In this document: piece by piece, positions 18,157 through 47,330 of the stretch | Layout of the letters: each line of letters begins with the position of its first letter | Numbering within the stretch: position 1 is the first letter of the stretch | Assembly: GCA_977020255.1 (NCBI GenBank) | Contig: CDROCS010002968.1 | Span: 248,001-312,000 of the forward strand | Length of the DNA: 64,000 bases | DNA from: Obrimoposthia wandeli | Lineage: Eukaryota | Reading direction: 5' to 3' | Translations under genes and position numbers: made by a program | The notes under the pieces: generated by a model | Seen by the model: the letters and a program-made list of their open reading frames with translations, nothing else | Told to the model about the DNA's origin: nothing | The model's database searches: none

Positions 18157-19541
18157 TGTTGGGGTTTCTATTTGAAATGCTTTGAATTCAGATAGATCCT
18201 CGGATGGAGGGCCCCAACGTGAGCTCTATAGCAATAGGGTTTGCAGTTGTTTAAGGTCTATTTAGATTTTACTTGCCTGTCTCAATTTCTAATCTGAAGG
18301 TTTGTTTTCTCTTGGTGTTGTGGAGATGTGTGAAGAGCTGTGTATATGGGTACTGGAAAAATTCGCTTTGTGAGGTGTAATGTATGGAGTAGTTGATACT
18401 TACTTGATTTCAAGTATTTGTTCAAAATAACGCTGAGTAAATTGTAGGAAAGCTTTATTGTCATAAACACACTAATTAGGTTTCTAAAAAATGACAACAT
18501 CACTCAAACTTTATCGAAAAACTTCTTTTAAAATTTACTCAAGTTTATCGTAAACTTCTTTTAAAATTCACTCAACTTTATTTAAAACGTCTTTTAAAAT
18601 TCACTCAACTTTATCGAAAATTTCTTTTAAAATTCCCGCTTCTTATCTCTCACCTCTGTCCGATACCGTTGAAATTCCACAAGATCTTGCCACTAATTTT
18701 CCGTCAAGATGCTGGAGTCCTAGTATCCGGCAATTCGTCTTGTCCGTCCGGTTCTTGTTTCGTTTCCTTGTGTCCTTTCTAGTTCTATTTGTCCCACTAG
18801 CTCGATATGCGGGTCCTCAAATTAACGAGGCTTCCTTGACTATACTCTGGTAGGTTTAAGACTGTCGTGCGTCTAATCGTCTAATCTTCTTTTGTGGCGC
18901 TCGGATTTTATCAACGAGACTTCTTTATCACTCACGTTTTTCGAATTCTGGATATCAAAATAAATAACTTCTATATTAGAGGTTAATTACCTTCTTCTTT
19001 ACTCTCTGATCAGTATTGATATTGATCAAGTGGTGACTCAACTTCTCTCTTCTTCGCGGATAATGCGTATAATTCGATCTATACTGGCAATTCGCTCCAC
19101 TTCTGGAAACCAACTCTTCTCGCTAATAATAATAATAATTGGTGTTTTATAGTAAATTTACCTTTGCAGCTAATGGAGTTGCTGTCTACCTGCTGCTTGT
19201 TCTCAGAGTCTTCCTTTTTATTTGACAATATTCCTGTCAATAGATAATGGATTCTGTCTGGAACTAATGGATCAGCCTTGTTTCCCAGTCAATTAATTTC
19301 TTGCTCTATATTCTACTTCAGAATTTATTGGTTATTTTTTATTTATTTAATTTTCCGGGCCCTTAACTTTTATACTCATCTCACACTACACATGACCTTT
19401 CAAGGTCCTAAAATATTTCTTAATTTTATTACATATAATTTTATTTCTAATTTTATTTTATTTTTAACCTTGTTTCCCAGGTTTTATTTCTTGTATAAAT
19501 AAATTATTATTTTCCCAAATATTAGAATCCTAATCCTAACA
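18157..19541 (+). mobile_element. Solo LTR (Gypsy-like), TG...CA, 4-bp TSD ATAT
   Basis: Starts TGTTGGGG and ends CCTAACA; ATAT on both sides; AATAAA near the 3' end; four ~33-bp tandem repeats at ~18500-18635. Confidence 0.85.
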
Positions 19542-32379: not shown

Positions 32380-33041
32380 GTACAGTTTAACTTTTGAAAA
32401 AGTCTTTGAAATAAGTGTGTCAGGTTGTATTCTATACATGGTGTTTACTTTTTTGAAATTCGAGCTGCGATTCCAACCTGATGTGTTAGCTTTGAAATTC
32501 AACTAACCGTCTCGGGAAATACAACTTCAGATTTTCAAAAATCAGCCTCTTTCTCGTTTTCATCCTCATCGTCATCGAAATATTGTGTTTAAGTAAGAAA
32601 ATGTGAATCACAAATAACATTCACAAGCCACTTTTCTATTCAATCATCATTCAATATTTCACTGCACATCCATTCATAATTGTAGCAGCATCAAATTCAA
32701 CGTTATTTGCCACATGTGGGAATCGATTTTCTTTTTCATCTGTATATCTAAAATCAAACTATGAAAGAATTTTAAGTGTTTGATGTGGTTTCTCATTCCA
32801 GGGTGTAAATATTACAATAATAGCACCAAGCACATGTACTTTGTTCGATAGCAATATTGATTCATTGTATTCGTAAATTGAAAGAAGTACACGATGCACT
32901 AGACGCCTTGCGATAGTAAAAGTGTATCTAATACAGAAAAATGTAACATAAGTCATTCCATCTTGCACATTTCATGGGAAACCGCTCCATTCTCGTTTGT
33001 ATTCTAAACGCCATATGGTGAATATGTTTCTAAGGTATTGG
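32380..33041 (-). mobile_element. pogo/Tigger-like transposase relic, 3' part (interrupted by the Maverick)
   Basis: Minus strand reads ...PNTLETYSPYGV*NTNENG, RRLVHRVLLSI, VHVLGAII..PWNE..TL, acidic C-terminal region; resembles Tigger/CENP-B DDE_1 proteins. Confidence 0.65.
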
Positions 33042-33138
33042 AGTAGGTGGATGTGTCTGGTCTAATTCACCCCCACCCCCTCCCCCGGGGGGCTACCACT
33101 GTCCTTTAAAATCGTGCATGTGTGTGAAGTGAAATTTT
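33042..33138 (+). repeat. Left terminal inverted repeat of the Maverick
   Basis: About 97 nt matching the reverse complement of 46973-47069, with roughly 10 differences by manual alignment. C-rich core. Confidence 0.95.
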
Positions 33139-33384
33139 CTACCCCTCCCCAACACTCAAAAAAACTAATTAACCCCATATAACACCCTTTAAAATTGAAA
33201 ATCTCATAGTGCTCCCTCAGAGTGAGGAAGTGCCGGAGAAGCCATCTAGGGCCAATGCGTGCCAGTGGATAACGGGCCAATTCTATACTAGAGGATCCCA
33301 GTCTCGCCGATCGAGATTAGTCCGCCACCAAGTCAATGACGCCTACAGGAGACATCACCGGCTTCATTAGATACCAGTCAAAAT

Positions 33385-33849
33385 TTGGCTAGGGCTTGGG
33401 AGACTGCTTCTCCTCGTCCAACAATCATCCAGAACTTGAAGAGGGCCTGGGATGAAGCTGGTATCGACGAATTCCTGGCGGAACTGGATACACCGACAAT
33501 GCTTCCAGATTCGCGAGGGCAACAGGATGCCGTCTCACGTCAGCTTCAGCGTGAAAAGGAGGAGAAACAGAAGAAAGCTCCACGGAAGAGGAAGGCTACT
33601 ACTTCTATGTCGGGACCATCAACATTGGCTGTACCTCCTCCCAAAAAGTTGCGGCAACTATTGCCAAAACTTCAGGTAACGGAAATTGCTGTACAACAAC
33701 CGGTGAAGCCGAAAAAGAAACCTGGTCGGCCAAAGAAGAAGGAGCCAGTTCCGCTTTCTCCAATAAAACTCAGTCGGAGGGATTTCGATGAGGATGATCC
33801 CAATGATGACTTTGAAAAGATTTTTAAAAATATAATTTATAAAAAATAA
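33385..33849 (+). CDS. Maverick ORF1: basic/proline-rich protein with AT-hook-like motif; no in-frame ATG start
   Basis: 154-codon open frame (open from ~33339) with KKPGRPKKK, a PRKRK NLS-like motif, an acidic tail and an internal repeat QNLARAW/QNLKRAW. Confidence 0.55.
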   Translation: MARAWETASPRPTIIQNLKRAWDEAGIDEFLAELDTPTMLPDSRGQQDAVSRQLQREKEEKQKKAPRKRKATTSMSGPSTLAVPPPKKLRQLLPKLQVTEIAVQQPVKPKKKPGRPKKKEPVPLSPIKLSRRDFDEDDPNDDFEKIFKNIIYKK

Positions 33850-34191
33850 TTTCATGTGTTTCTATTTCTTCTTTATACTTATTTAAAAAAACTTTAAAAT
33901 TTTAAAATTTCTTTTACAAATTTAGTAATATTAAAATACTATCTTTAAGTTTACTAAAATATCAAGATGAAAAAAATAGTTAACTTATTCGAATGTGATT
34001 GGAATTATAAGGAATAATTCTACATGAAATTTTTTGGTTTAAATAGAAATGCAATGATTAGTTATAGATTTATTAAACTTTCATTTGATAAATAAAAATA
34101 TATCATTTAATTGAATGTGATTGGATTAAAAATATCTTAAATTTATATAGATATATAGGTTCAAATTTATTAACCTCTTCATAATTAAAAA

Positions 34192-34515
34192 ATGGAAGTC
34201 ATTAAAATGAAAAGTCTGGTGACGAAGATTGAAGAAAACATCAGGAGAAATGAGAAGAAAGGAGATTTAAGAAAGAGGGTCCTCAATTAGAATCTCTACG
34301 CTGCTGTCGCGACCTAGTGGAATCGTCGGGTGGAGATTCAGGAGAGGCGGCTAGCAAAACAAAAACGGATCGTGGAGTGGAACAAAAAAATCGAATTGGA
34401 AAAAAAAAATTGGATGAAAAAAGAAGAGGAGATGGAGGACAATCGACAAGCTGCAAGAAAGAGAATCCTCCAGATTAAACCGGAAGAATATATATATATA
34501 TATATATATTTTTGA
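34192..34515 (+). pseudogene. Maverick ORF2: coiled-coil protein with SERTA-like N-terminal motif (2 in-frame stops)
   Basis: MEVIKMKSLVTKIEENIRRNEKKGDLRKRVLN*NLYAAVAT*WNRRVEIQERRLAKQKRIVEW... reads in a single frame from ATG 34192. Confidence 0.45.
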
Positions 34516-34917
34516 ATATTATTTTTTCTTTCGTATTTATTGTTTATTTTTATGTTACATAATTGTCTAAATATAAACAATTTTATATATAATATTTTTT
34601 ATAATGAATAATAAAAATTGGAATAAATTATACATTAAATTATATCCTGATTTAATGTAAGATTATAAAAAAAATTACTTATCAGAAAATGATACTACGG
34701 AAATTGTTGGAGATAAAATATGTAATTTAATTTCGAAATATTTAGGTATGTTTACATTTAATATAATTTATTTTAATATTCATAGGAGAATTGACAATAT
34801 ATACCAATCTTAACATGAAAGACTGAATCCTGAGTACTTTTTTATTTTAATAAATTTTTGATTAATGGTTTTTTTATTCGTTATAAACAATGGGATTTGC
34901 TACAAATTTGGTTAATT

Positions 34918-35264
34918 ATGCAAGAATATATCATAGATTTTGAGGCTTTCATTAACAGAAATGGAGATTATATTATAAAATAATTATGTATTATGGATAT
35001 ATGCGACGTTTTCCATCCTTTGCATTTCATATTTCATGTAGATATCCCGTTAGAAGTTTAGATTATAAGAAAAAATTTACTAATTTATATCTAACTAATT
35101 ACTTTTATTTATTAAAATGGAAAGATGGACATAAGGCTTTTTGTGAAATATGTATTTTCGATACAATAAAATCTAATTTTGATATTGAAAATGGAATATT
35201 TTATGTTTTAGATGAAATGGATGGCAAAAAGTATAAGACTTTAAAAAAATATTTTCCAAATTGA
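34918..35264 (+). pseudogene. Maverick ORF3: conserved Polinton-type small ORF with N-terminal DxE (DEDD-like) motif, frameshifted
   Basis: MQEYIIDFEAFINRNGDYIIK*LCIMDI...HFIF, then a frameshift into YPVRSLDYKKKFTNLYLTNYFYLLKWKDG...FYVLDEMDGKKYKTLKKYF. Pattern matches the D-x-[EQ]-x-F..IxKEL..H.IF..WxDG ORF common in animal Mavericks. Confidence 0.6.
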
Positions 35265-35409
35265 GGTTGATTACTGTAAATATTTCACGTGATCATCTAA
35301 TAAAAATTCCACGAAATATTTGCTGTCCATATCGTGATCATGGTGACCATTGAGCATATAAAAAATGTTTAAGTCTATCTTATTATTACTTGACATGTAG
35401 ATAAACAAT

Positions 35410-35612
35410 TATTCTAATTGGAGAAATTCATTATTTACAAAATAAAATTTTCATCCAATTACAAATAATCCTTTTAATTGGAGGAATAAAATATATTAAA
35501 AATAATATTAACAACCAATAACAGATAAACAATCCTTCTCAGTGGAGGAATAAATTCAATTTTTTCATCCAATAAGAAAAGACCATATGTGCACAAATTT
35601 TAGTATATAAGC
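35410..35612 (+). promoter_or_regulatory. Putative polB promoter: five CCAAT/ATTGG boxes plus TATA
   Basis: ATTGG 35417 and 35477; CCAAT 35455, 35515, 35569; TATATAA at ~35604; ATG at 35652. Confidence 0.55.
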
Positions 35613-35651
35613 AAACAATTTCTTCATTTAAATTCCCGACTATTTGAAATA

Positions 35652-38600
35652 ATGACTATGGTAAGAAACTTCTTTTTATTTCTTTATTAATATTTAATTT
35701 TAGATTACATGTAACCTGTTTCCAGCATATTGTGATGCTTCGGCTCCGCATGGAGGAGAGTCCTGCATGGAGATAATGTCCGCCTACTATCGGACAAAGT
35801 CTCATGGGCTTCAATTCTTCGCCTGTCCCTTCTGCAGAACAATGGAGGAAAAGGAGTTTTGAGACTTCTTCTGTGAACATCGAGCTCATCTATCATGTTT
35901 CACGGCCAAAAACAAGAAGAGGGCTATCGTGCAATTGGTGTGCGATTCGCAGGCCTCTCCAGCTCCTGCTCCAATTCCAGTGGCAGTCAGTCTACCAGTT
36001 TATGGTCCTGCCATTGGTCCTTCTCTCCCGGCTCCTGATTCTGCAGCTGCCTCATCCACTCAAATAACTAACAATGAGTGGATGAACATCCTCTCCCAAG
36101 AAGATTTTGAGTAGTTGGCACCAGCAACCCAATTCTCAAACAATGACTGGATGGAAAATATCACCCAATCAGATTTCGAGATGGAGCAGCCCCAGTGGAG
36201 TGACAACAGCTGGTTGGAGACTATTGAGGAATCTGATTTTGTCGAGTTAACAGACGACAGTAGGATGGATTCTGTCAATGAAGAGGACTTTCAACCAACT
36301 ACAGTTGGATTGCCTTCATTAGGTATATTTTATTATTATTTTTCTGATTATTTTTTAAAATTGTAATTATATATATTTTATTTTTATTTTTTATTCAAGA
36401 AATACAGTGATACAGCCATCATCCGCTACGACAGCCATGCCTCCTCCATCGCGAGTGCCTACATCGATGTTTGCAACGCCTTAGATGAAATCATTTAAAA
36501 AAATATATTTATTTTTTAATATATTTATTTCACCAGCATCAACCTCTACAACAGCTGCTTCTTCGTCGGCAATGTCAGTTACTCCAACCTCAAATGCAGC
36601 ATATACAACTACCATTGTCTCATCGGCAGCACCTACTACAGCAGCACCGTCTACATTAGCTGCGATTGCCTCAACTGTTAATATAAATAGTTGTCTTCCC
36701 ATTCAATTAGGGGGAGGTTTGTCAGCAACTGAAGGAGAAAGAGGCAAGGCCAATTTCTTAATAAGGTCCCACCAAAAAACGTAGAGAAAACGGTGCTACT
36801 ATAGAGTATCACCGAAATAATAAATATGTTATAGTTAAGATGCCATTAGGAAATAAAATTTTATTAAACGTAGGTGTAAATACAAATATTGAAAGTCTTT
36901 TAAAATCAGAAGTGACTAAATTAGGACAGGCTAAGGTTCAATTTTGCGCAACAGTGCAATTTAAAAATGTCAATGAAGAGACTAAAACTTGGGTAAATTC
37001 ACATAAAGTAACTGTTTTTTATGATAATTTTGTAACTGAAATTGGAAGAAACCTAGATGAAAAAATGTTAATTATAGCGAGTTAGGTAATGGATGGACTC
37101 TAGTTAGAATTCACGATGTTAGCTTTGTTCTAACAAAGTTCACTGACATGATATATCTTTCGAGGAGTTCATACATTCTTTCACCTAGATCTCTTCAACT
37201 TTCACGTTCAATTGTTAACATACAAAACAGTGATAACCGTTGCTTTCTGTATAACGTGTTGGCCATCCTCAAAAGGGATCTAATTACTGAGCATAGCGAG
37301 CGTGTCAGTAAATATACCCCTTTTTTAAATTAATTGCAGTATCATGGAATAGATTTTCCTGTTAAATTAACTGCGATATCAAGATTTGAACACATCAATA
37401 ATTTGAGTATTAATGTATTTAAATATAATACTGATATCCCAGTTAATATAACAGATAAAGAAATATTTAAAAATTCTTATGTAGATGTAATTTATAGGAA
37501 CAAAAATGAGGGGACTCAGGTCAAATAAATTTGCGAAAACTTTTGCAGATTTAGAAACTACTACAGAAATCCCACCATAACATGCATTTCTTTAGTTTAC
37601 CTGGGCAACAGCAAAAAAAACTCTTAAAATTAATATCGAGTTACTGCAAGATCCCGCGATGTATCAAATGTATGATAATGGTATACGCGGTGGAATGACT
37701 TTTGTCAACAAACATCATGTTGTCAAAAATCAATCCACGGAGATTCTGTACATCGACATTAATAATTTGTATGGGTGGGCGCTTACTCAACCTCTACCTC
37801 ATGCCAACTTTAAGTGGGTTTATGATGAGGAAGAGTTGAATAAGTTGATGACAGATTTGGCTACTGTTGATATAGTTTCATCAAACGTCGGCTATTTGGT
37901 TGAGGTTGACTTAACAATCCCTTCCAATGTGCATGATAAATTAGATGATCTCCCAGTAGCACCTGTTCATCAATGCCCACCTAATTCAAAGGTTAAGAAA
38001 TTATTGTTAACACATGAAGACAAGTTGAATTATGTTGTGCATTGGCGGCTTCTTCAATTCTACTTAAAGTTGGGAGCGAAAGTTACTCGAATTCATCGTG
38101 CTATAAGCTTTAGTCAAAACTTTGTGTTTAAAGACTATATTGAGAAGAATTCTAGAAAACGTAATTTGGCCACTAGCAAATTCGATCGGGATTTTTACAA
38201 GTTAAAAAGTAATAGTCTCTTTTGAAAAACTGTTGAGGATTTGCGGAAACGTATTTGTCTACGGTTTTGCAATGATGAGCGTAAACTAATAACATATACT
38301 AGCAAGTACAACTTCAAGCGTAGTTTTACAATGGTAGATGACTTGGTAGCAGTGTTATTAGGACAACTGAGTATTTGTCTCGATCGACCGAGTTATATAG
38401 GTCAAACGGTTTTAGAACTTTCTAAACTCAGAATGTACGAGCTTCAATACATAGAATTAGAGAAATATCGACAGGTTTTCAATTGTGAGATCAATATCGC
38501 AGCTGGGGACACTGACTCTTTCTTTTTAGAATGTAAAAATGTTAGTTTAGATAATCAATTATTACCGACAATGTTTAGGGACAACTTACTTGATACCCAT

Positions 38601-38975
38601 AAATATCCCGCTAACTATCCTCTACACTCTATGAATTTAAAGGATATTATCGGGAAATTTAAGGATGAAAGCAAGGGACAGGTTTCGTATGATGATTGTA
38701 TTTTCCTACGCCAAAAATGCTACAGTTTACATGCATCTAATAATACATGTTCAATGAGAGCAAAGGGTGTGGGAAGAAACAATCTTACACATGAGGCCTA
38801 CCAGAAAGTTTATGATACTGGGTGTATTGAAAGCGTTGAGCAAACTAGATTTATTTCAAGAGCCCATCAACTGTATTCCCATAAATCAACCAAAATCGCT
38901 TTGAGTAGTAATGACGACAAGCGCTTTTGGGTAGAAAAGAACGCTAGCCTAGCTTATGGACACTTCCAAATTTAA
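35652..38975 (+). pseudogene. polB: Protein-primed family B DNA polymerase with spliced N-terminal leader; stops, frameshifts and an internal deletion
   Basis: Motifs GNGWTL, NIQNSDNRCF, GIDFPV, SINVF, GIRGG, YIDINNLYGWAL (motif A), KLKSNSLF*KT (motif B), AGDTDSFF (motif C), IGKFKDE, DDKRF. Leader exons 35652-35660 and 35704-36322 have GT-AG introns. Confidence 0.93.
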
Positions 38976-39224
38976 ACGGTTTTCATTTTTTGATTGTTTT
39001 GTTTAGTTTATTAAAATTTTAGATCCCTATGGCACCTTGACTCTAACTTTTTGTTATTTATATACATTTTTTAGGTTGGGCCTTATCTTTGCTGACAGAT
39101 CTCATTGTGTATTGTTTTTAATGTATTAAAAAATTATGTCTTTTATTATTTTACCCCTATATTTTTTTAAGGATTTAAAGAAAATTCAAAATAAAACATT
39201 AAAAATAGTTATTATTATAGCACA

Positions 39225-39602
39225 TTAATCGTTTTGCAACGATAACCATAAAATACATAAATGTCCACAGTTTCTCGTCGCAGGATCCTGATATTGTATC
39301 ATGTTGTAAAATACTCTTCTTCGTTTTTTTTGAATAGTCGAAACAACTTTGTGATAATACATTGCAAGTGGATCAAATACATCTATTGTCCACTCTCTAA
39401 CATAAATAGCTATCCAATGTTCTCCTATTAAATTCGAAGTATGAGTATTGATAATGTAACCTCCAGATTGAAAAAATGGAATCATATCAATAGGATAAAC
39501 TCCATTGAATTTATCACCCAGGACCTTTTCTGCTGATTCTTGTACTTGTACTGAACTAAATAAAAATTAATAAATATAAATTTTAAAAATGTTTTACTTC
39601 AT
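39225..39602 (-). CDS. Adenain/Ulp1-like cysteine protease (maturation protease), two exons, 111 aa
   Basis: Exon 1 ATGAA (39602-39598), 42-nt GT-AG intron (39597-39556), exon 2 39555-39225. Gives MNSVQVQES...FNGVYPIDMIP...IINT...GEHW...FDPL...QYQDPATRNCGHLC with the His/Asp/Cys triad present. Confidence 0.88.
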
Positions 39603-39603
39603 T

Positions 39604-40832
39604 CTATAATATGACAGTTCTGTTTTTATTGATTTGTATTTCCGAATCAAATACTCCGTAAATAAGCACCGTAGTAGGATGTGTTAAAGCTGCATTGAAC
39701 TTAATTTCTAGTCATAAATTTCCATCCTTTGGTAGTTGGCATTGGTTTATATCAAAGTCTGGTGCCAAAACAAATGTTAAGAACGGGCAGCTAATTTTAA
39801 AATCAGTGAAAAAAATACCATTGTTTATATTTTTATCTAGTTGACCCAAATTACGAATAATAGATTGCGTATAAGCCAAAGCATAAGCGTTACCTTCGAA
39901 ATCTGTTTTATATGTTTCACGATAATCAGTATTTCTTGAAAGTGTCACTGAACCTACATTAAGATTGTCAAATTGAGTTGAATCTGTCGTATAATTTCCT
40001 AGATACTTTGCAGTTTTTTGAAAAGAAATTAAATCGAATTTCGGTAATCTTACATCACCAAATATTTGATCCTTATTAAAAGCTTGTGTACCCGTACCTA
40101 AAGAGTAAGATATAAGTGTAGTTTCTCTAATAGAATAGCAAGCATTGTTTTTCCCTTCCTATATTATGTGCCATCAAAACTGATTGCTCGGTTTTAACTC
40201 TTCGAACATACAATTTTGCAACCAAAATATCAAGTCTAGGTTTCAGAACGTCTGTGCTTATCAAAAGAAAATTCCATTTATTACGTTTCAAGTGAAGATG
40301 TACATTAACACCGGGAATTAAATATTTCGGTTGTTCAAAGAAATTCAATCTCAAAGACCCACACATTTCGTAAGCTTTAGAACCTGCAATCTATTCTTTG
40401 CGAGTTGCAACCGTTTTATCAAAAACCAATGGTTGCCAAATTAGTATTTTAAGTATCAGTACTATAATTCAAAATACTTTCAATCCAAGCTTTATGAGCA
40501 TAGAAAGAATTTCCACTTTCAATTTTGACATTATTAAGAGTAACAATGGCATCACTAAATAATGAATTAAAGAGATAATTTACAGGTGTTACATCGGAAT
40601 TTTCCTCTAAATTAGTACCATCCCGATTTAATACTTTTATTTGAACATAAAGCAAAGTATCATTTAAATCTAAATATTCGCTATTGGAACCATTAATATT
40701 AAATTCTAAATCGGTTAAAGTGTTTCCTGAAACTGAGTTAACTAGAACTATTTCTTCAAAGGAATCATTATCTACAACTAACTGTGGAAGTGGTTTATCA
40801 AAAATACAAAATTCGGTTTTGACGCAACTCAT
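39604..40832 (-). pseudogene. Major capsid protein (double jelly-roll, hexon-like), disrupted
   Basis: ORFs 40449-40832, 40127-40366 and 39712-39948 join across stops and frameshifts: LEFNINGSNSEYLDLNDTLLYVQIK, YAHKAWIESILNY, FFEQPKYLIPGVNVHLHLKR, FVLAPD..GNL, typical of Polinton MCP. Confidence 0.9.
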
Positions 40833-41206
40833 TTTGCAAATATTGTTCCTTCAACTTTCCTATGTTTGTTTATATTAATTTTTTGCTTCTTTTTACGTTT
40901 AAATCCACTACCTTCTTTGCTTTTATTTGATTTACCTTTTCTAATCAAATTAGCAACTTCAGGTAAAACATTATCAAGTTCATTAAGTGTATGCTTCTTA
41001 AAAGTTGGTATTAGTTTATTGTCATTAGATGAAAGGTAATCCTTTCCTAATTTTGATACAAATCACCTGAGTCTTTTTAAAAGAGGAAAGGCAAATCTAC
41101 CTAATGTTCTAAGCCAGCCAGATCCATATTGTTTACCAACAAAATATGGTAATTATCCACCTTGTTGGCTTTGATTATAAGCCTCAATTATTGCTGGATT
41201 CGTCAT
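40829..41206 (-). pseudogene. Small basic/amphipathic virion core-type precursor (QxGxG protein) between penton and MCP
   Basis: MTNPAIIEAYNQSQQGG*LPYFVGKQYGSGWLRTLGRFAFPLLKRL...KQEGSGFKRKRSKK. The QxGxG plus amphipathic helix pattern and gene position are typical of Polintons. Confidence 0.75.
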
Positions 41207-42242
41207 TTTGTTTTCTTAAATGTATTGTTAAACTTGTCTTGGCCCCGTACGTGAAATCTATTAGTTGTTCGGAATCATCTCTAATATTTACTTCAATATT
41301 GTTTATAGAAAAGAGAGCAACTGGAAGATACATTGGTTGATCTATACGCATACTGACACCGTCCCCATCTTTAGTTTTATTTTGAGATATCCATATTGTT
41401 CTCAAAAGAGGAACTCGTTGTCGTCCTACAAGCGTTGGTTCTATTAAATTAGTATAAATATATAAATGATTAACAACATTTAAAGGTTTTGCCTTATTTT
41501 TAGCTTTTATGGTTTTTATTGTATGGGTTTCAAAGGTATTTCTGTTTAAACCGAGGTATTTAGTGAGTTTATCATCAAATGAAACCGGTTTTATGTTGCT
41601 CTTTACTGTATACGTTAATTTACCATTTAATGTTACACATTTATCCAAATATTCATTACATTCCTTCTGTATTAATTTACATAAATCCACTTCACTATCT
41701 ATTTTATAATCCTTTGAAAACCTTTTCGGTTCCACTACAGTCTTTGGTCTCGTTTAAATTAACAACACTTTTGCTACTCTACCAGGAACATTTCTAACCG
41801 ATTTAGATGAGACTATATCCCGTCTATTACGAGATACTGCTTGTTCACTATCAAAACTGAATTGAAGAGCTTCTTTTTCAGATTCAAATGTAATTTTAAT
41901 AGCTTGAAGATATTTTATTCGATTTTTAAATCTGACTTTGTTATTTTCATATATAACTTTTACTTCTTTATCTATTCAATTGTAAAAGAAGTTTCCTTTA
42001 CTATCAAATCCGATCACAACTTCAGTTGTTTTTTCATGATCAAATTCTTTTGTAAACGACATATGTGAGTTTTTTCTGATAGTAACTGGAGAATAATAAA
42101 ATGAAAATTATGTTAAAGCCGCTTCCCATTCTCCTTGGAGATTTATAGAATTTTCCCAATCGATAATAAAGCTACTAGCGTCATTATCTGGTTGAGTCTT
42201 CGGGCATCCGTTACTAGGTAAAACCATATACATAGACTTCAT
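41184..42242 (-). pseudogene. Minor capsid protein (penton, single jelly-roll), disrupted
   Basis: N-terminus MYMVLPSNGCPKTQPDNDASSFIIDWENSINLQGEWEAALT; C-terminus LYIYTNLIEPTLVGRQRVPLLRTI...PMYLPV..INNIEVNIRDDSEQLIDF...IHLR. Confidence 0.88.
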
Positions 42243-43268
42243 ATTATATTAGATGCTGATATCCAAGTTGGGTCTGAATAACCATGCCATTTAACAAAGT
42301 ATTGTTTATGTTTACAGGCACCCTTAGATTTTAATATTTTTTGAATACGGAAAACGCTAGGTTTATTTGATATTACTTGTAGTTCTTGCATGTAAAATTT
42401 ACCGTGAACGATATTATTGTCAGCATCTTTAATAGTATACATTATTGGATTACTCTTTTGATCAATTTTACTTATACAAAATATTTTATCGCTCCAATTC
42501 TGATCAAAGTTTTTAATAAATGGAGTAGAGCTAATTTTCGAAATTCGGACATATTCCTTTTTCTTATATTTAGCTTTTCTAATATTTTTCTTTTTTATTC
42601 CTGTACATCCAAATATCTTTAGAATTTTTATTAGTAACATCAACAGGTCTCATTCCCTTGAGACCTCTATGTTCAGAGTGATTATATGCATGTATTATTT
42701 TAAGTAAAACTTGGATCCATTTTTTATTTCCTTCTTTTGTGAAATACTTTTTTATTCGATCTCTTACAGTACAATTAAATCTTTCTACTACTGCTGCTTT
42801 GTACTGTGATAACACAGGGTAGTGATTTATATTATTTTGTTTAAATAATTATTGAACTTTCTTATTATAAAATTCTTTTCCTAAATCAGTTTGCACATTT
42901 TGTGGAATGCCCTCTTTTAATATTTCTTTAATGGCTTCAAGCATAGCTATTGAAGACTTTGCTTTAACTGGAATTGCACGAGCAAACCTGCTAAATACAT
43001 CAATACATGTTAAAATATATCGATATCCCTTATTAATGGAAGAATATGGGATCATCTCCATCAAATCCATTTGCCATAAATTATTAGGACCGCTGGTTTT
43101 GTAAGCTCTAGTTGGAAACCTTCTTCTCATCGGCTTGTTCAGACTGTAGGCTAACTGGTCGCTCAGCCATTTCTGCGTTTTCTTGTAATTTTGTTTTGTT
43201 CTTTTTGCTAATTTTGAAACTCCTGTGTAGCCAATTGGATCTTTTGGATTGAACCATATCTTCTCCAT
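42239..43268 (-). pseudogene. int: Retroviral-like (rve) DDE integrase with C-terminal chromodomain-like region
   Basis: WQMDL, YILTCIDVFSRFA, QTDLGKEF, VVERFN (DDE), YNHSEHR, and QYFVKWHGYSDPTWI at the C-terminus. One stop and a frameshift. Confidence 0.95.
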
Positions 43269-43354
43269 TACAACAATTTGAATAGAAAGAAAATTTAAGT
43301 TTAGGTAAAGAAGGGCTAGCACCCATATCTTTAGCTGATTTTAGAAATAATTGT

Positions 43355-43683
43355 TTATGAACGTGTCGCAGCTATAATACTACTGATAATTGAAGCAACA
43401 ACTGGAATAACAGCCCCTATGAAACCACCATTCTGTTAAGAATAATATTTCGTTTCCTTTTTTTACTTTTTACATTAGCAATATCTAGAGAAGTTTTTCT
43501 TTATTTCTTTAATATATTTTTCCGATTTTCAACTTTTACTCGACTCAAAACTATATTATACAAAACTTCCAATAAATCATCTACAACAAAGGATGGAAAT
43601 GCTTTAAGAATAATCATTCTCTTATTAAAAGAAGCTTTGACTAAAGCTTTAAAATAGGGTATGCTTCTTTGTATTTTCTTCAT
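43355..43683 (-). pseudogene. Conserved Polinton small ORF ending in a QNGGF + hydrophobic tail
   Basis: MKKIQRSIPYFKALVKASFNKRMIILKA...LLEVLYNIVLSRV..., then after a frameshift QNGGFIGAVIPVVASIISSIIAATRS*. Confidence 0.7.
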
Positions 43684-43882
43684 TTTAATAAAAAAGGTTC
43701 AATTTAAATATTGTTTATATTCGAAGCCATATAAGTTTTTTTTTATTTTTAACTACAGATTTGATTAATTCTTTCACTTCTTTTTTCTTAATAATTCTTT
43801 TTTTTGATTTCTTAGATTTTACTTTACGTTTTACTATCAACTTTGTAAAAGGCATTGCGAATTTATTTTTTATAATTGTTCT

Positions 43883-44491
43883 CTATTTGTTTGAATTAAA
43901 TATGTCTGTTAAAACACATAAATCATCTGGGCAAGCTTGTGTAAAGTCAATAAATATATACCCATGTGCTTGTTTAGCAGCATCGTGGAATGAATCAACT
44001 AGAAAGTTCTTATTTTGAGGAAATGCCTGTCTGGCCACAAAATCAACAACTGTTTGATCTCTAGGATTTTTAAATAAAACTAAGTAATGTACATTAAGAT
44101 TTCTTGTTCTATGGTGACCTCCTTGGTGAAACAGATTTTGAGTGATAAATATAACTGTAACTTCACGATGTCTTGCAATCTTTGTAAATAAATTATTAAA
44201 GTCCGATTCCTTGTTAGCCTCCTCATACAAATCATCAATTATTATTACATCTTTTTTTTTCAATCTTTCACACCAATTTGCATCAAATCCTTCAATAAAT
44301 TTTATACCCTTCAACTTGCAAACTTTTGTTTTGGTTAACCCGCTTTCCCCTCCTCCACCATGATGCCAATAAATATTTTTGAAACTAGATTTGCAAAGAG
44401 ATTTATTTTGCAACAATTTACATACGAAATGTGTCTTTCCACTTCCACTGAAACCAACTATTTGAAATAAAGCATTATTATTTAGCTCCAT
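43883..44491 (-). CDS. A32/FtsK-HerA-like genome packaging ATPase
   Basis: 202-aa ORF with Walker A GFSGSGKT, Walker B IIIDD, RH..TVIFITQNLF, NVHYLVLFKNPRD and HGYIFIDF. Confidence 0.95.
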   Translation of the reverse strand: MELNNNALFQIVGFSGSGKTHFVCKLLQNKSLCKSSFKNIYWHHGGGGESGLTKTKVCKLKGIKFIEGFDANWCERLKKKDVIIIDDLYEEANKESDFNNLFTKIARHREVTVIFITQNLFHQGGHHRTRNLNVHYLVLFKNPRDQTVVDFVARQAFPQNKNFLVDSFHDAAKQAHGYIFIDFTQACPDDLCVLTDIFNSNK

Positions 44492-44791
44492 TCTTTCATT
44501 TAATATTGTTTATATTATCATAGAAGTTTTCTTATTGAAATGTACAATGTTAGAGCTATTGTAGATGAAATACAAAATTTAATTAATGAATATTTGGCTA
44601 TAATTTTATTTATTTGTGTACGATTTCTAAATTCTCGAATAACGTGTGATCTAACCAAATATTTCAATGTTATCTTTTGTTATATCATTATTTTTTAATT
44701 CTGATAAAATTTGTTTACCCCTAATTTTCCCAGAAAATATTTCGCCGACAAGACGATCCACTTCATAGTCTGTATTTATAGTATTATTCAT
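44490..44791 (-). pseudogene. Unknown Maverick ORF between TBP-like gene and ATPase
   Basis: MNNTINTDYEVDRLVGEIFSGKIRGKQILSELKNNDITKDNIEIF... then frameshift or stop. Fills the gap in the minus-strand gene run. Confidence 0.35.
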
Positions 44792-44819
44792 TTGAAACAA
44801 TAAGTTTAAACGGGTTTGT

Positions 44820-45319
44820 TTATAGAAAAGATAACAAGATGTAATAAGATATATTTTCTAAAGTCAAATCAACAATGTCTGGATAATCAGAATTTTTCAA
44901 TCCCAATATCATAACTTTACCACTGGAAAATATATTTACACATAGCGGTTTAAACTTCAAATAACTGAGAGCAGGAAAATTTTCTGGTTCAAACATGCGT
45001 TCTTCTTTCATTTTCTCTGCAGTTTAAAAAAGATTTATCTGTTTCCCAATATTAGCTGAAATTGTGATTGATTGTATTGCAGTGATTCGAATTCCAAATG
45101 GTAAATTGAACCCAAGCATTGGTATTTTGCATCCCATAACACGACAATTTCCTAAAATAATTCAATATGAAATTAAAATAAAAACTAACCTGTAGGAAAA
45201 ATAACAACTGTGAAATTGTCAAACTTTTTCACATATTGTCTCGGCTTCCATTCATTGAATGGTAAGTACGAAACATCATCTTCTATTCTACCTTTATAAT
45301 TTATATTTACGAGTTTCAT
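44820..45319 (-). pseudogene. TATA-binding-protein (TBP)-like gene, two exons, 153 codons, one premature stop
   Basis: Exon 45319-45190, 38-nt GT-AG intron, exon 45151-44820. Protein MKLVNINYKGRIEDD...TVVIFPT|GNCRVMGCK...IRITAIQSITISANIGKQINLF*TAEKMKEERMFEPENFPALSYLKFKPLCVNIFSSGKVMILGLK has two TBP-like repeats. Confidence 0.8.
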
Positions 45320-45409
45320 TAAACTAAAATTGTATTCTGTAAAATCTTCTTTATATATGTCTGAACCTGCTTTTTTATTGCATGTTTCTTGTAGTTATCT
45401 TGCAAACCT

Positions 45410-45555
45410 ATTATAATTGGATGATATATTTCTTCCAATCAAATTTGATTTTTAATATTGATTTAGTCCAATCAAATTCAATGCTTTAGTTATATTAACC
45501 AATGAGATTCATGTCTTTGTTATAAATTAGTATTAAAGAATGCGCCATTGGAGGA
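45410..45555. promoter_or_regulatory. Putative divergent promoter (TBP-like / ORF A) with CCAAT-box cluster
   Basis: CCAAT at 45435, 45468 and 45499 (33- and 31-bp spacing); ATTGG at 45416 and 45547. Lies between divergently oriented ORFs. Confidence 0.55.
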
Positions 45556-45568
45556 AAAATCACAATAA

Positions 45569-46051
45569 ATGCATTCATATCAAAGACAATTATCAACGAT
45601 AGACGATAGCCAACGGATATTAAGCGGTGACGAAGATTTAGAAATGTTTGAAGAATCGGATAAGGATATGTATGAAGAAGTGAAACAATATTTCAAATAC
45701 AAAGTCAGATTTTTGAAGAAGGCTCAACTGATTGCTTTAGTAAATCCTGTGACAATTGAAAGAAGAAAGTTCAGCTATTATCTATCAAATATTCAAAAAC
45801 CAGATTTTCAATATCTTAAACAGAAAGTTTAAAAGGCAGTTCCAAATTTTACTTTCAATAAGAACGAATTTTATATCTGACGAGCCGATGCAGCATTTCT
45901 AGATGACTATGGAAGAGAAATAAATGTTGATGCGTTTCCGAAAAAGAAGCAATGGACTGTAACAATTCGACTTTATGGTTACAAGAAAGATGAAATTGGA
46001 ACAAAGTTGTCTATGTGGAAAATTGATCGTGCTCATATCCCTATGTTTTAA
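45569..46051 (+). pseudogene. Maverick ORF A, putative OB-fold ssDNA-binding-like protein (2 in-frame stops)
   Basis: Single frame through stops at 45830 and ~45878, ending ...FLDDYGREI...WTVTIRLYGYKKDEIGTKLSMWKIDRAHIPMF*. Paralogous to the next ORF. Confidence 0.55.
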
Positions 46052-46328
46052 ATATTTTCCTTTTTTACTTTCATTTTCCATGTAATAAATTGTAATTGGT
46101 TTTATTCATTTTTAATATGTTTCTTTCATTTGGCAATTAATAATTAGTTTTATTTTTCATAATATTTGTATCTTATATGTATTTTTTTATAAACATTGAT
46201 TTTTTTAATCAGTTTCCTTATTTTAGAATGAGCCTCTTCTGAGATAGGTAGGAAATTTTTATTATCCAGAAAGAATTTAAAAAGGAAAACTATGTAATAT
46301 ATTAAAGAGGCTTCAAATTATACGAGTT

Positions 46329-46638
46329 ATGAATCCTGTGAAAATATCTAAAGTTGAGAATAAATATCTGATCGAAATTTTAACAACATCTGATATTGAT
46401 CAATTGAAAGATATTTTGGGATTTTACATTCCTGATTATGTATATGAAGGAAATTGTTTCCATCTTGAAACTGATCCCAGTCTGGATTTTAAAGATGATC
46501 TAGGATATTTGATTGCTCCAATTCTAGATGAAGAACTATGGAATATTTCAATACGTCTCAATGGATAATTTTGCTGATGACGGTAAAATGCAGCCTCTTT
46601 GGACATTGAGTGAAGCCAATATGTTGTTTTATGTTTAA
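46329..46638 (+). pseudogene. Maverick ORF B, tandem paralog of ORF A (frameshift near 46565)
   Basis: MNPVKISKVENKYLIEIL...FKDDLGYLI...WNISIRLNG/YFADDGKMQPLWTLSEANMLFYV* aligns collinearly with ORF A. Confidence 0.55.
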
Positions 46639-46972
46639 TAAATGTTTTGAAAAATAATTTTGATTCGTATTTTGCTTTTTCTCCTCTAAACTATATAGAT
46701 CTGACCTAATTTTCTCTTATAAATCTGACTTAAATTTTTAACAAAAACATGTAGTAATCTAAAATCTTTCTTAAAAATAGTAGTAATATATTCACATTTT
46801 ATTTGAAATCTCGTATGTGATAAGCCGCCGGGGTCAATATGGATTCTCGTGATCTTCTCTAATCACTTTTGAGATTCGCTGTAAATTTCAAAGTAAAATA
46901 AAAAAATGTGTTGCTTTTCAAAATAAAATTCCCTACGCACATACACCAAATTTCACTCCACACACATGCACG

Positions 46973-47069
46973 AAATTTCACTCCACACACATGCACGGTT
47001 TTAAAGGACAATGGTAGCCCCCCGGGGAGAGGCGGAGGGAGTGGATTATACCGGACACATCCACCTACT
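46973..47069 (-). repeat. Right terminal inverted repeat of the Maverick
   Basis: Reverse complement of the left TIR. Its inner end is tandemly duplicated (AAATTTCACTCCACACACATGCACG twice, ~46949-46997). Confidence 0.95.
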
Positions 47070-47330
47070 TATTGGGCATGTTTACGAGCCATTCATTAAC
47101 AACATCTTCTTTCCCATTGCCAGCTACACCAACAACATTGAATCTTATTTAAACTTTGAAAACATGGTTTTTATGCCGGGAAAAATCAATGAAAAGCTTG
47201 TCATGTTCAGATGGTGTTGATCTTTGACCATTAACACAAAACCGCCAAACTAGATGTGACCTTGTGATCAACGAACAACCACCCGTTACGAAGATTATTT
47301 CTGTTAACAAATTAAGAATAATGATTGGAA
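47070..47330 (-). mobile_element. pogo/Tigger-like transposase relic, 5' part
   Basis: Removing the Maverick and one TSD copy restores the frame IRFNVVGVAGNGKEDVVNEWLVNMPN|TLETYSPY. Confidence 0.65.

Follow-up and report, generated by a model that had tools for sequence, protein, structure and literature searches.

A spliced leader with a conserved Cys/His module very probably forms the N-terminal part of a Maverick/Polinton DNA polymerase in Obrimoposthia wandeli

Within a 64,000-nucleotide stretch of the Obrimoposthia wandeli genome (GenBank assembly GCA_977020255.1, contig CDROCS010002968.1, positions 248,001 to 312,000 of the forward strand; hereafter the window, whose coordinates are used throughout), a short multi-exon leader with a Cys/His cluster and acidic repeats precedes a gene for DNA polymerase B (PolB). 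The question that this locus raises is whether the leader is a separate regulator that alternative splicing detaches from the polymerase, as a sequence-only reading had proposed, or the first part of the polymerase precursor itself.

The leader belongs to a decayed element of ~14 kb (33042-47069), which is bounded by left and right terminal inverted repeats (TIRs; 33042..33137 and 46973..47069) and flanked by a target-site duplication of 6 bp (left 33036..33041, right 47070-47075). Together with an integrase (rve, 42.8 bits against a Pfam cut-off of 32.6), an A32/FtsK ATPase (Pox_A32, 27.9 bits, cut-off 22.8) and a protein-primed PolB (pPolB), the TIRs and the 6-bp duplication identify it as a Maverick/Polinton. 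The window's own polymerase piece has no Pfam match; it is 92% identical to an open reading frame (ORF) of a sister copy, L033, that matches PF03175 at 107.7 bits (cut-off 25.8) and is a protein-primed PolB. In addition, a protease-like ORF (39225-39566, minus strand) scored 15.9 bits for Peptidase_C48, below the cut-off of 20.7, and the candidate capsid ORFs (39712-41753, minus strand) gave no relevant Pfam match.

Several neighboring features were recorded. The gene directly upstream of the leader (window 34900-35400, plus strand; L033:7225-7764, minus strand) has an IDFE motif and, at its C-terminus, a cluster of Cys and His; it has no Pfam match and is putatively DEDD-exonuclease-like. More acidic-aromatic ORFs are positioned near the left terminal repeat (L031:308-931 and window 33340-33849, both plus strand), of which the former contains 35 tiles meeting the activation-domain rule used below, and other copies carry a different ORF at the same place. 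A TBP-like gene (window 44820-45394, minus strand) is apparently interrupted by an intron, and in a second Maverick family of the same genome (family 2) a TBP-like gene (L067:4371-4832, minus strand; PF00352 at 42.7 bits, cut-off 22.9) is arranged head-to-head with polB. PF00352 yielded 19768 first-look candidates in the host genome, and one report (10.1101/697771), in its accessible part, mentions homologues of TBP in non-animal relatives. Family 2 also has a near-perfect palindrome after polB (L070:9218-9402, with 55-nt arms and a 3-nt loop; L067:9235-9410), which follows arrays of 26-31-nt and 68-78-nt repeats and is possibly a hairpin end. Outside the element, a 33-nt tandem repeat of three to four copies lies at 18518-18644 of the window.

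The structure of the leader gene was established by comparing copies of the family. A DNA search of the host genome, which is 1.35 Gb in size and AT-rich, returned 8413 first-look candidates. Scores were computed for 40 of them, and the 30 best loci, comprising the window copy and 29 sisters, were aligned; exon 2 of the window is 88.5-91.8% identical to those of the sisters. In one sister (L004) exon 1 and its surroundings are missing, and this copy was scored as a miss in the site counts. The family gene has four exons, of 9, 619 and 87 nt followed by the long PolB exon, separated by introns that measure ~46, ~76 and ~47 nt and have phases 0, 1 and 1, and GC content is 0.07-0.14 in the introns versus 0.43-0.51 in the exons. 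All features given from here on lie on the plus strand. A TATA-like box (35604..35611) is found ~45 nt before the ATG; TATAWA occurs at 35595-35620 in 29/30 copies, a weak signal in that it also occurs in intron 2 of 30/30 copies and is common in AT-rich DNA. The coding part of exon 1 comprises three codons (35652..35660; ATG in 26/29 sisters, donor in 27/29) and is followed by intron 1 (35661..35703; phase 0, 43 nt here, GC 0.14), whose acceptor is present in 26/29 sisters. Exon 2 (35704..36322), which encodes the predicted Zn module, a Pro/Ala linker and the acidic repeats, has an intact frame in 24/29 sisters. Both the donor and the acceptor of intron 2 (36323..36398; phase 1) were observed in 28/29 sisters, the acceptor having been lost in the window copy. 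Exon 3 (36399..36486) is symmetric (phase 1-1) and 87 nt long in the family, and its frame is broken in the window. The donor of intron 3 (36487..36533; phase 1) is kept in 25/29 sisters and lost in the window, and this intron ends in tandem acceptors 3 nt apart (36533 and 36536), each present in 27/29 sisters, after which exon 4 starts with an S/T/A-rich linker of variable length (36534..36703). All seven sites are intact in 18/29 sisters, and the sites together with all four frames in 10/29. Judged from these copies, the leader exons are frame-compatible and are very probably spliced constitutively into one fusion with pPolB; the alternatives that remain, exon-3 skipping and the choice of tandem acceptor, would preserve that fusion. 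Four sequencing runs aligned to the window, which look like DNA reads and so do not bear on splicing, showed no GT-AG joint among the 15 of 256 joints listed.

Much of what had been described from the window alone was borne out by this comparison, including the ATG-ACT-ATG exon with its 43-nt intron (sites in 26-27 of the 29 sisters), the 619-nt exon read through two in-frame stops (35860 and 36112), its Cys/His cluster and four acidic repeats, the phase-1 donor at 36323, and the acceptor at 36536 with the S/T/A linker, QLGGG and PolB downstream. The part of the proposal that a leader with a predicted Zn module and an acidic-aromatic region is spliced onto PolB thus stands, whereas the proposed switch between two acceptors does not. 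According to that proposal, the donor at 36323 would be joined either to an acceptor at 36407, giving a stand-alone transactivator of ~235 aa, or to the acceptor at 36536, giving the PolB fusion, and both readings can indeed be spelled out in the window. Among the sisters, however, only the acceptor at 36536 is conserved; that at 36407 was found in 0/29, and the true acceptor is located 9 nt upstream, at 36398. The middle exon, which had been read as ending in a stop, has a donor in the sisters that is mutated in the window, a situation that the sequence-only reading had itself named as contradicting it. This exon measures 87 nt in 26/29 sisters and 88 nt in the window copy, which gives the latter a private stop at 36482-36484, and a stop at the exon end is present in none of the 29 sisters. 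An alternatively spliced early unit with two conserved acceptors was therefore ruled out as a family feature, the choice between stand-alone protein and fusion at these acceptors has next to no probability left, and the switch is, on comparison of the copies, an artefact of decay in one of them. Two smaller claims were revised as well: the Cys of "CEHRAHLSC" occurs in 0/29 sisters, and the single indel postulated before the PolB N-terminus is a pair of breaks, with one near 36775 as proposed and a second near 36731.

The pattern of substitutions among the copies indicates that exon 2 is under coding selection. Changes common to at least three copies include 32 synonymous and 27 non-synonymous ones, versus 72 and 205 among private changes (Fisher p 4e-5), and the synonymous excess is seen separately in the Zn module (p 0.002) and in the acidic repeats (11:9 vs 16:77, p 0.0009), although these p values are optimistic, as changes common to several copies do not represent independent events, and recurrent mutation may be among them. 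The length of the S/T/A linker ranges between 161 and 272 nt, and the frame is preserved in 18 of its 20 distinct lengths (p 2e-7). Divergent subfamilies were also observed: exon 3 seems to be missing from L055 and an additional linker exon seems to be present in L058, and the number of acidic repeats differs in these copies as well.

The Cys/His cluster of the leader is an unnamed module of ~65 residues (35710..35901), which consists of C-x6-C-x5-H-x4-C and then C-x2-C-x14-H-x2-H (C-C-H-C plus C-C-H-H), with conserved ligands C3, C10, a His at 15-16, C21, C41, C44, H59 and H62. From this arrangement it is highly likely that the module binds zinc, at two predicted sites. A RING finger, which has eight conserved ligands including C-x-H-x2-H/C-x2-C and a closing C-x2-C, was considered and rejected, as the required Cys is present in 0/29 sisters, Cys65 in 3/28 aligned rows, and there is no closing C-x2-C. 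A profile built from 15 sister copies and searched against 1.84 billion protein representatives matched 43 proteins, 40 of which have the shared pattern, the other three (P0014, P0026 and P0038) being dropped as repetitive sequences without the motif; word-based protein searches returned only 1, 3 and 6 proteins. The relatives contain one to three module copies in tandem, and three of them (P0006, P0007 and P0011), whose ORFs do not include PolB, have 2-3 modules together with C2H2-like fingers and an extended low-complexity region. No Pfam family, and no C2H2 profile, matched the module above its cut-off, and a PDB sequence search gave only two chance matches (E about 1). An 85-residue model of the module (pLDDT 76) had no fold match at E<=0.001 in PDB or BFVD, and its best VIA fold match, with Z 2.7, is at noise level and does not establish a new fold. 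Among viral contigs searched with the family alignment, no relative of the module was detected. Literature searches, in a scope with few subscription papers and without Repbase, retrieved nothing describing the module or a spliced PolB leader; four short motifs are absent from the ~4 million characters covered of the PMC8502044 supplement, and the module is not described in the accessible parts of 10.64898/2026.10.13.758929, 10.1101/2024.03.25.586562 and 10.1101/697771.

Relatives in which the module and pPolB share a single frame show the fusion without splicing. In family 2, the module starts an uninterrupted pPolB with no intron between them: 21/150 scored matches fall within open frames 1240-1254 aa long, and in L067 one frame runs from the module through the whole pPolB. 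Similarly, P0044 and P0045, of 1286 aa each, have two modules ahead of a whole pPolB in a single ORF. P0048 has two half modules. Altogether, 5/40 module relatives reach the terminal-protein region within their ORF, and in 35/40 the ORF does not reach PolB; about nine of these 35 end in a hydrophobic tail that, by eye, looks like intron read-through, and P0006, P0007, P0011, P0030 and P0035 may be stand-alone proteins. Among the six full-length relatives from the word-based search, only one has even half of the module and five are without it, so the module is lineage-restricted. Taken over these sequences, a conserved Cys/His domain that precedes the terminal protein is real.

Downstream of the leader, the window retains a terminal-protein (priming) domain (36790..37140), which is broken here; a vOTU protease domain (37165..37532), which is truncated by a ~1.1-kb deletion at 37532/37581 in which the vOTU His and the adjoining part of PolB were lost; and the polymerase part (37596..38975), with one internal stop. 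The vOTU Cys and His motifs are both present in L031 and L067, and the terminal-protein region of family 2 is 41.5% identical to that of the window's family. The first 400 residues of L067 were used for a structure model, in which the module (pLDDT 90-96 over residues 21-70) is followed by a disordered linker of ~30 residues, a terminal-protein domain similar to the Y-family little finger/PAD (4ir1, Z 8.5, rmsd 2.5, 91 aligned) and an OTU-like domain (matches with Z 6-7.3; best 8c83, Z 7.3, rmsd 3.7, 102 aligned), Z scores of 7-8.5 being near the background level of the fold-comparison tool. With a pTM of 0.51, the model does not imply fixed packing between the domains. A Ser/Gly loop precedes the last strand of the terminal-protein domain. 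As modeled, the terminal protein and vOTU are laid out as in Krupovic et al., plus the extra N-terminal domain. The polymerase, putatively Beta-like, contains an endonuclease VII-like insert; according to the accessible text of earlier studies, an HNH insert is known in nematode and oomycete pPolB2 (10.1101/2023.08.22.554363), and a helicase-PolB fusion has been described (PMC12721341).

Between the module and the terminal protein, three further elements were examined. The four acidic W-x-x-x-I-x-x-x-D-F repeats (36070..36294) are diverged from one another and still preserve the W..I...DF pattern, and their composition is activation-domain-like. By the composition rule for activation domains that was used for tile scoring, 48-49 tiles pass in each of two intact sister exons, and across three loci 142/7187 tiles pass, 101 of them in exon 2, although another acidic ORF passes as well. 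An activating role of the repeats, predicted from composition, is conceivable but somewhat doubtful. QLGGG (36704..36718), a candidate site for the element's adenain-like protease, is intact in 19/30 copies, and three similar QxGG or QxGxG motifs are encoded by a basic ORF within the virion module. It fits (M/I/L)XGG-X, the consensus of the adenovirus protease, which, as stated in the accessible text of PMC4246237, trims an N-terminal part off the precursor terminal protein (pTP). The predicted cleavage at QLGGG has about an even chance of being right, and the fit to the consensus makes it more likely that a free leader would arise from cleavage than from splicing. Both the acidic repeats and QLGGG are missing from family 2 and from P0045, so that they are optional and neither is essential. 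Finally, a basic stretch (36737..36786), around which the window frame breaks near 36731 and 36775, directly precedes the terminal protein in the relatives checked and is likely a nuclear localisation signal.

A leader without PolB might also be produced beside the fusion, if intron 2 or 3 were retained or the transcript were polyadenylated early. A kept intron 2 meets a stop in 28/30 copies and a kept intron 3 in 23/30, AATAAA is found early in the terminal-protein region of 26/30 copies, and in some distant relatives the ORF contains no PolB. Such stops are, however, expected anyway in AT-rich introns, AATAAA occurs in none of the three introns (0/30 copies), the two parts would stay together if exon 3 were skipped or the tandem acceptor used, and family 2 has no intron at which they could be separated; on balance, we regard a stand-alone leader as quite improbable. 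Constitutive splicing into the fusion remains the preferred reading of the gene structure, and the rivals that accept it differ in what the leader would do.

The module could, for example, be a zinc finger for ubiquitin, either cooperating with the neighboring vOTU or serving to dock the polymerase on host proteins that carry ubiquitin. Weak zf_UBZ scores (P0007, 17.9 bits; P0018, 17.7 bits; cut-off 25.6), a tie of TAX1BP1 UBZ1+2 for the best fold match (Z 2.7, rmsd 3.7, 57 aligned) and the 1-3 tandem module copies, which would suit chain binding, point in this direction, but all of these scores are at noise level. UBZ zinc fingers have H-x3-H spacing, as opposed to H-x2-H in the module, and after the His ligands there is no conserved acidic residue, so that ubiquitin binding is very unlikely. 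Alternatively, only the module may be functional, with the acidic repeats and the S/T/A linker forming a tolerated spacer that expanded through slippage and the gain of exons. The range of linker lengths, the varying numbers of repeats and exons in L055 and L058, and the sufficiency of a ~30-residue linker in family 2 would be consistent with such a spacer; the separate synonymous excess of the repeats and the W..I...DF pattern kept over all four of them argue against it, and we consider it unlikely, although it deserves some weight. As a whole, the data are best explained, with reasonable though limited confidence, by a constitutively spliced long precursor in which the Zn module and the repeats stand before the terminal protein, the vOTU and the polymerase.

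Under this explanation of a long precursor, the four exons would be joined to encode, in order, the Zn module, the acidic repeats, the terminal protein, the vOTU and the polymerase. After priming, the vOTU would cut between the terminal protein and itself, as in the model of Krupovic et al., and because this cut falls behind the terminal protein, the leader would stay attached, within a precursor terminal protein, to the 5' ends of newly made genomes. On the genome ends, the likely binding partner of the Zn module would be DNA, chromatin or a host factor; the acidic repeats would likely help to recruit the host transcription machinery, until the adenain-like protease trimmed the leader off at QLGGG, as the adenovirus protease does on pTP.

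Comparison with known systems places the leader beside several partly similar arrangements. The Polinton pPolB of Krupovic et al. (10.1101/2024.03.18.585575) has, in the accessible text, the same little-finger-like terminal protein with a Ser/Gly loop, vOTU Cys/His and then the polymerase; here an extra Cys/His module precedes the terminal protein, the window's family has ~230 more residues at that place, and neither "zinc" nor "splic" occurs in the main text of that paper. As far as the accessible text of PMC4246237 goes, adenovirus pTP likewise has an N-terminal extension on the priming protein with an (M/I/L)XGG-X site, cleavage of the leader being a prediction, but pTP is separate from the polymerase and the leader's terminal protein is fused to it. 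The "Oncoid" genes of adintoviruses (Starrett et al., PMC8502044) are also Cys-rich, acidic sequences just upstream of PolB; in the part of that study available, they are defined by LxCxE or CR1 motifs and form a separate ORF, whereas the sequence here is fused to PolB by splice frame or directly. With LxCxE and CR1 motifs absent from two intact sister exons and the leader fused to PolB, an Oncoid or E1A-like identity was rejected. Vertebrate and nematode Mavericks share the TIRs, 6-bp duplication, integrase, ATPase, protease-like gene and pPolB (PMC8097293; 10.1101/2022.07.12.499685), and the available passages state that intact vertebrate Mavericks contain no introns (PMC8097293) and that in nematodes the core genes are intronless, introns being found in cargo (10.1101/2022.07.12.499685); in contrast, three short introns interrupt the 5' part of the polymerase gene here. 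The "Ziftr" regulators of some adintoviruses (10.1101/2024.03.25.586562) similarly place zinc-finger sequence in the early region, and three relatives of the module have classical C2H2-like fingers upstream of it. In the accessible text Ziftr is CTCF-like, while the module is part of PolB and matches no C2H2 profile above its cut-off.

The published domain map of Polinton polymerases begins at the terminal protein, and in the families described here an unnamed conserved Cys/His domain precedes it. Because of the three short 5' introns, ORF-based annotation would miss the leader or name it as a separate gene. A more far-reaching reading, which we consider distinctly unlikely as a whole, is that of a genome-tethered transactivator, in which the two-zinc module and the acidic repeats on the priming protein would work with the element's TBP-like protein and be freed at QLGGG by the virion protease. 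If this were true, each new genome end would bring its own activator, and an E1A-like job would be carried out within a precursor terminal protein and be switched by proteolysis instead of splicing. The leader in any case suggests a parallel to the maturation of adenovirus pTP, and the module offers a small foldable domain for asking what the Polinton precursor terminal protein does besides priming.
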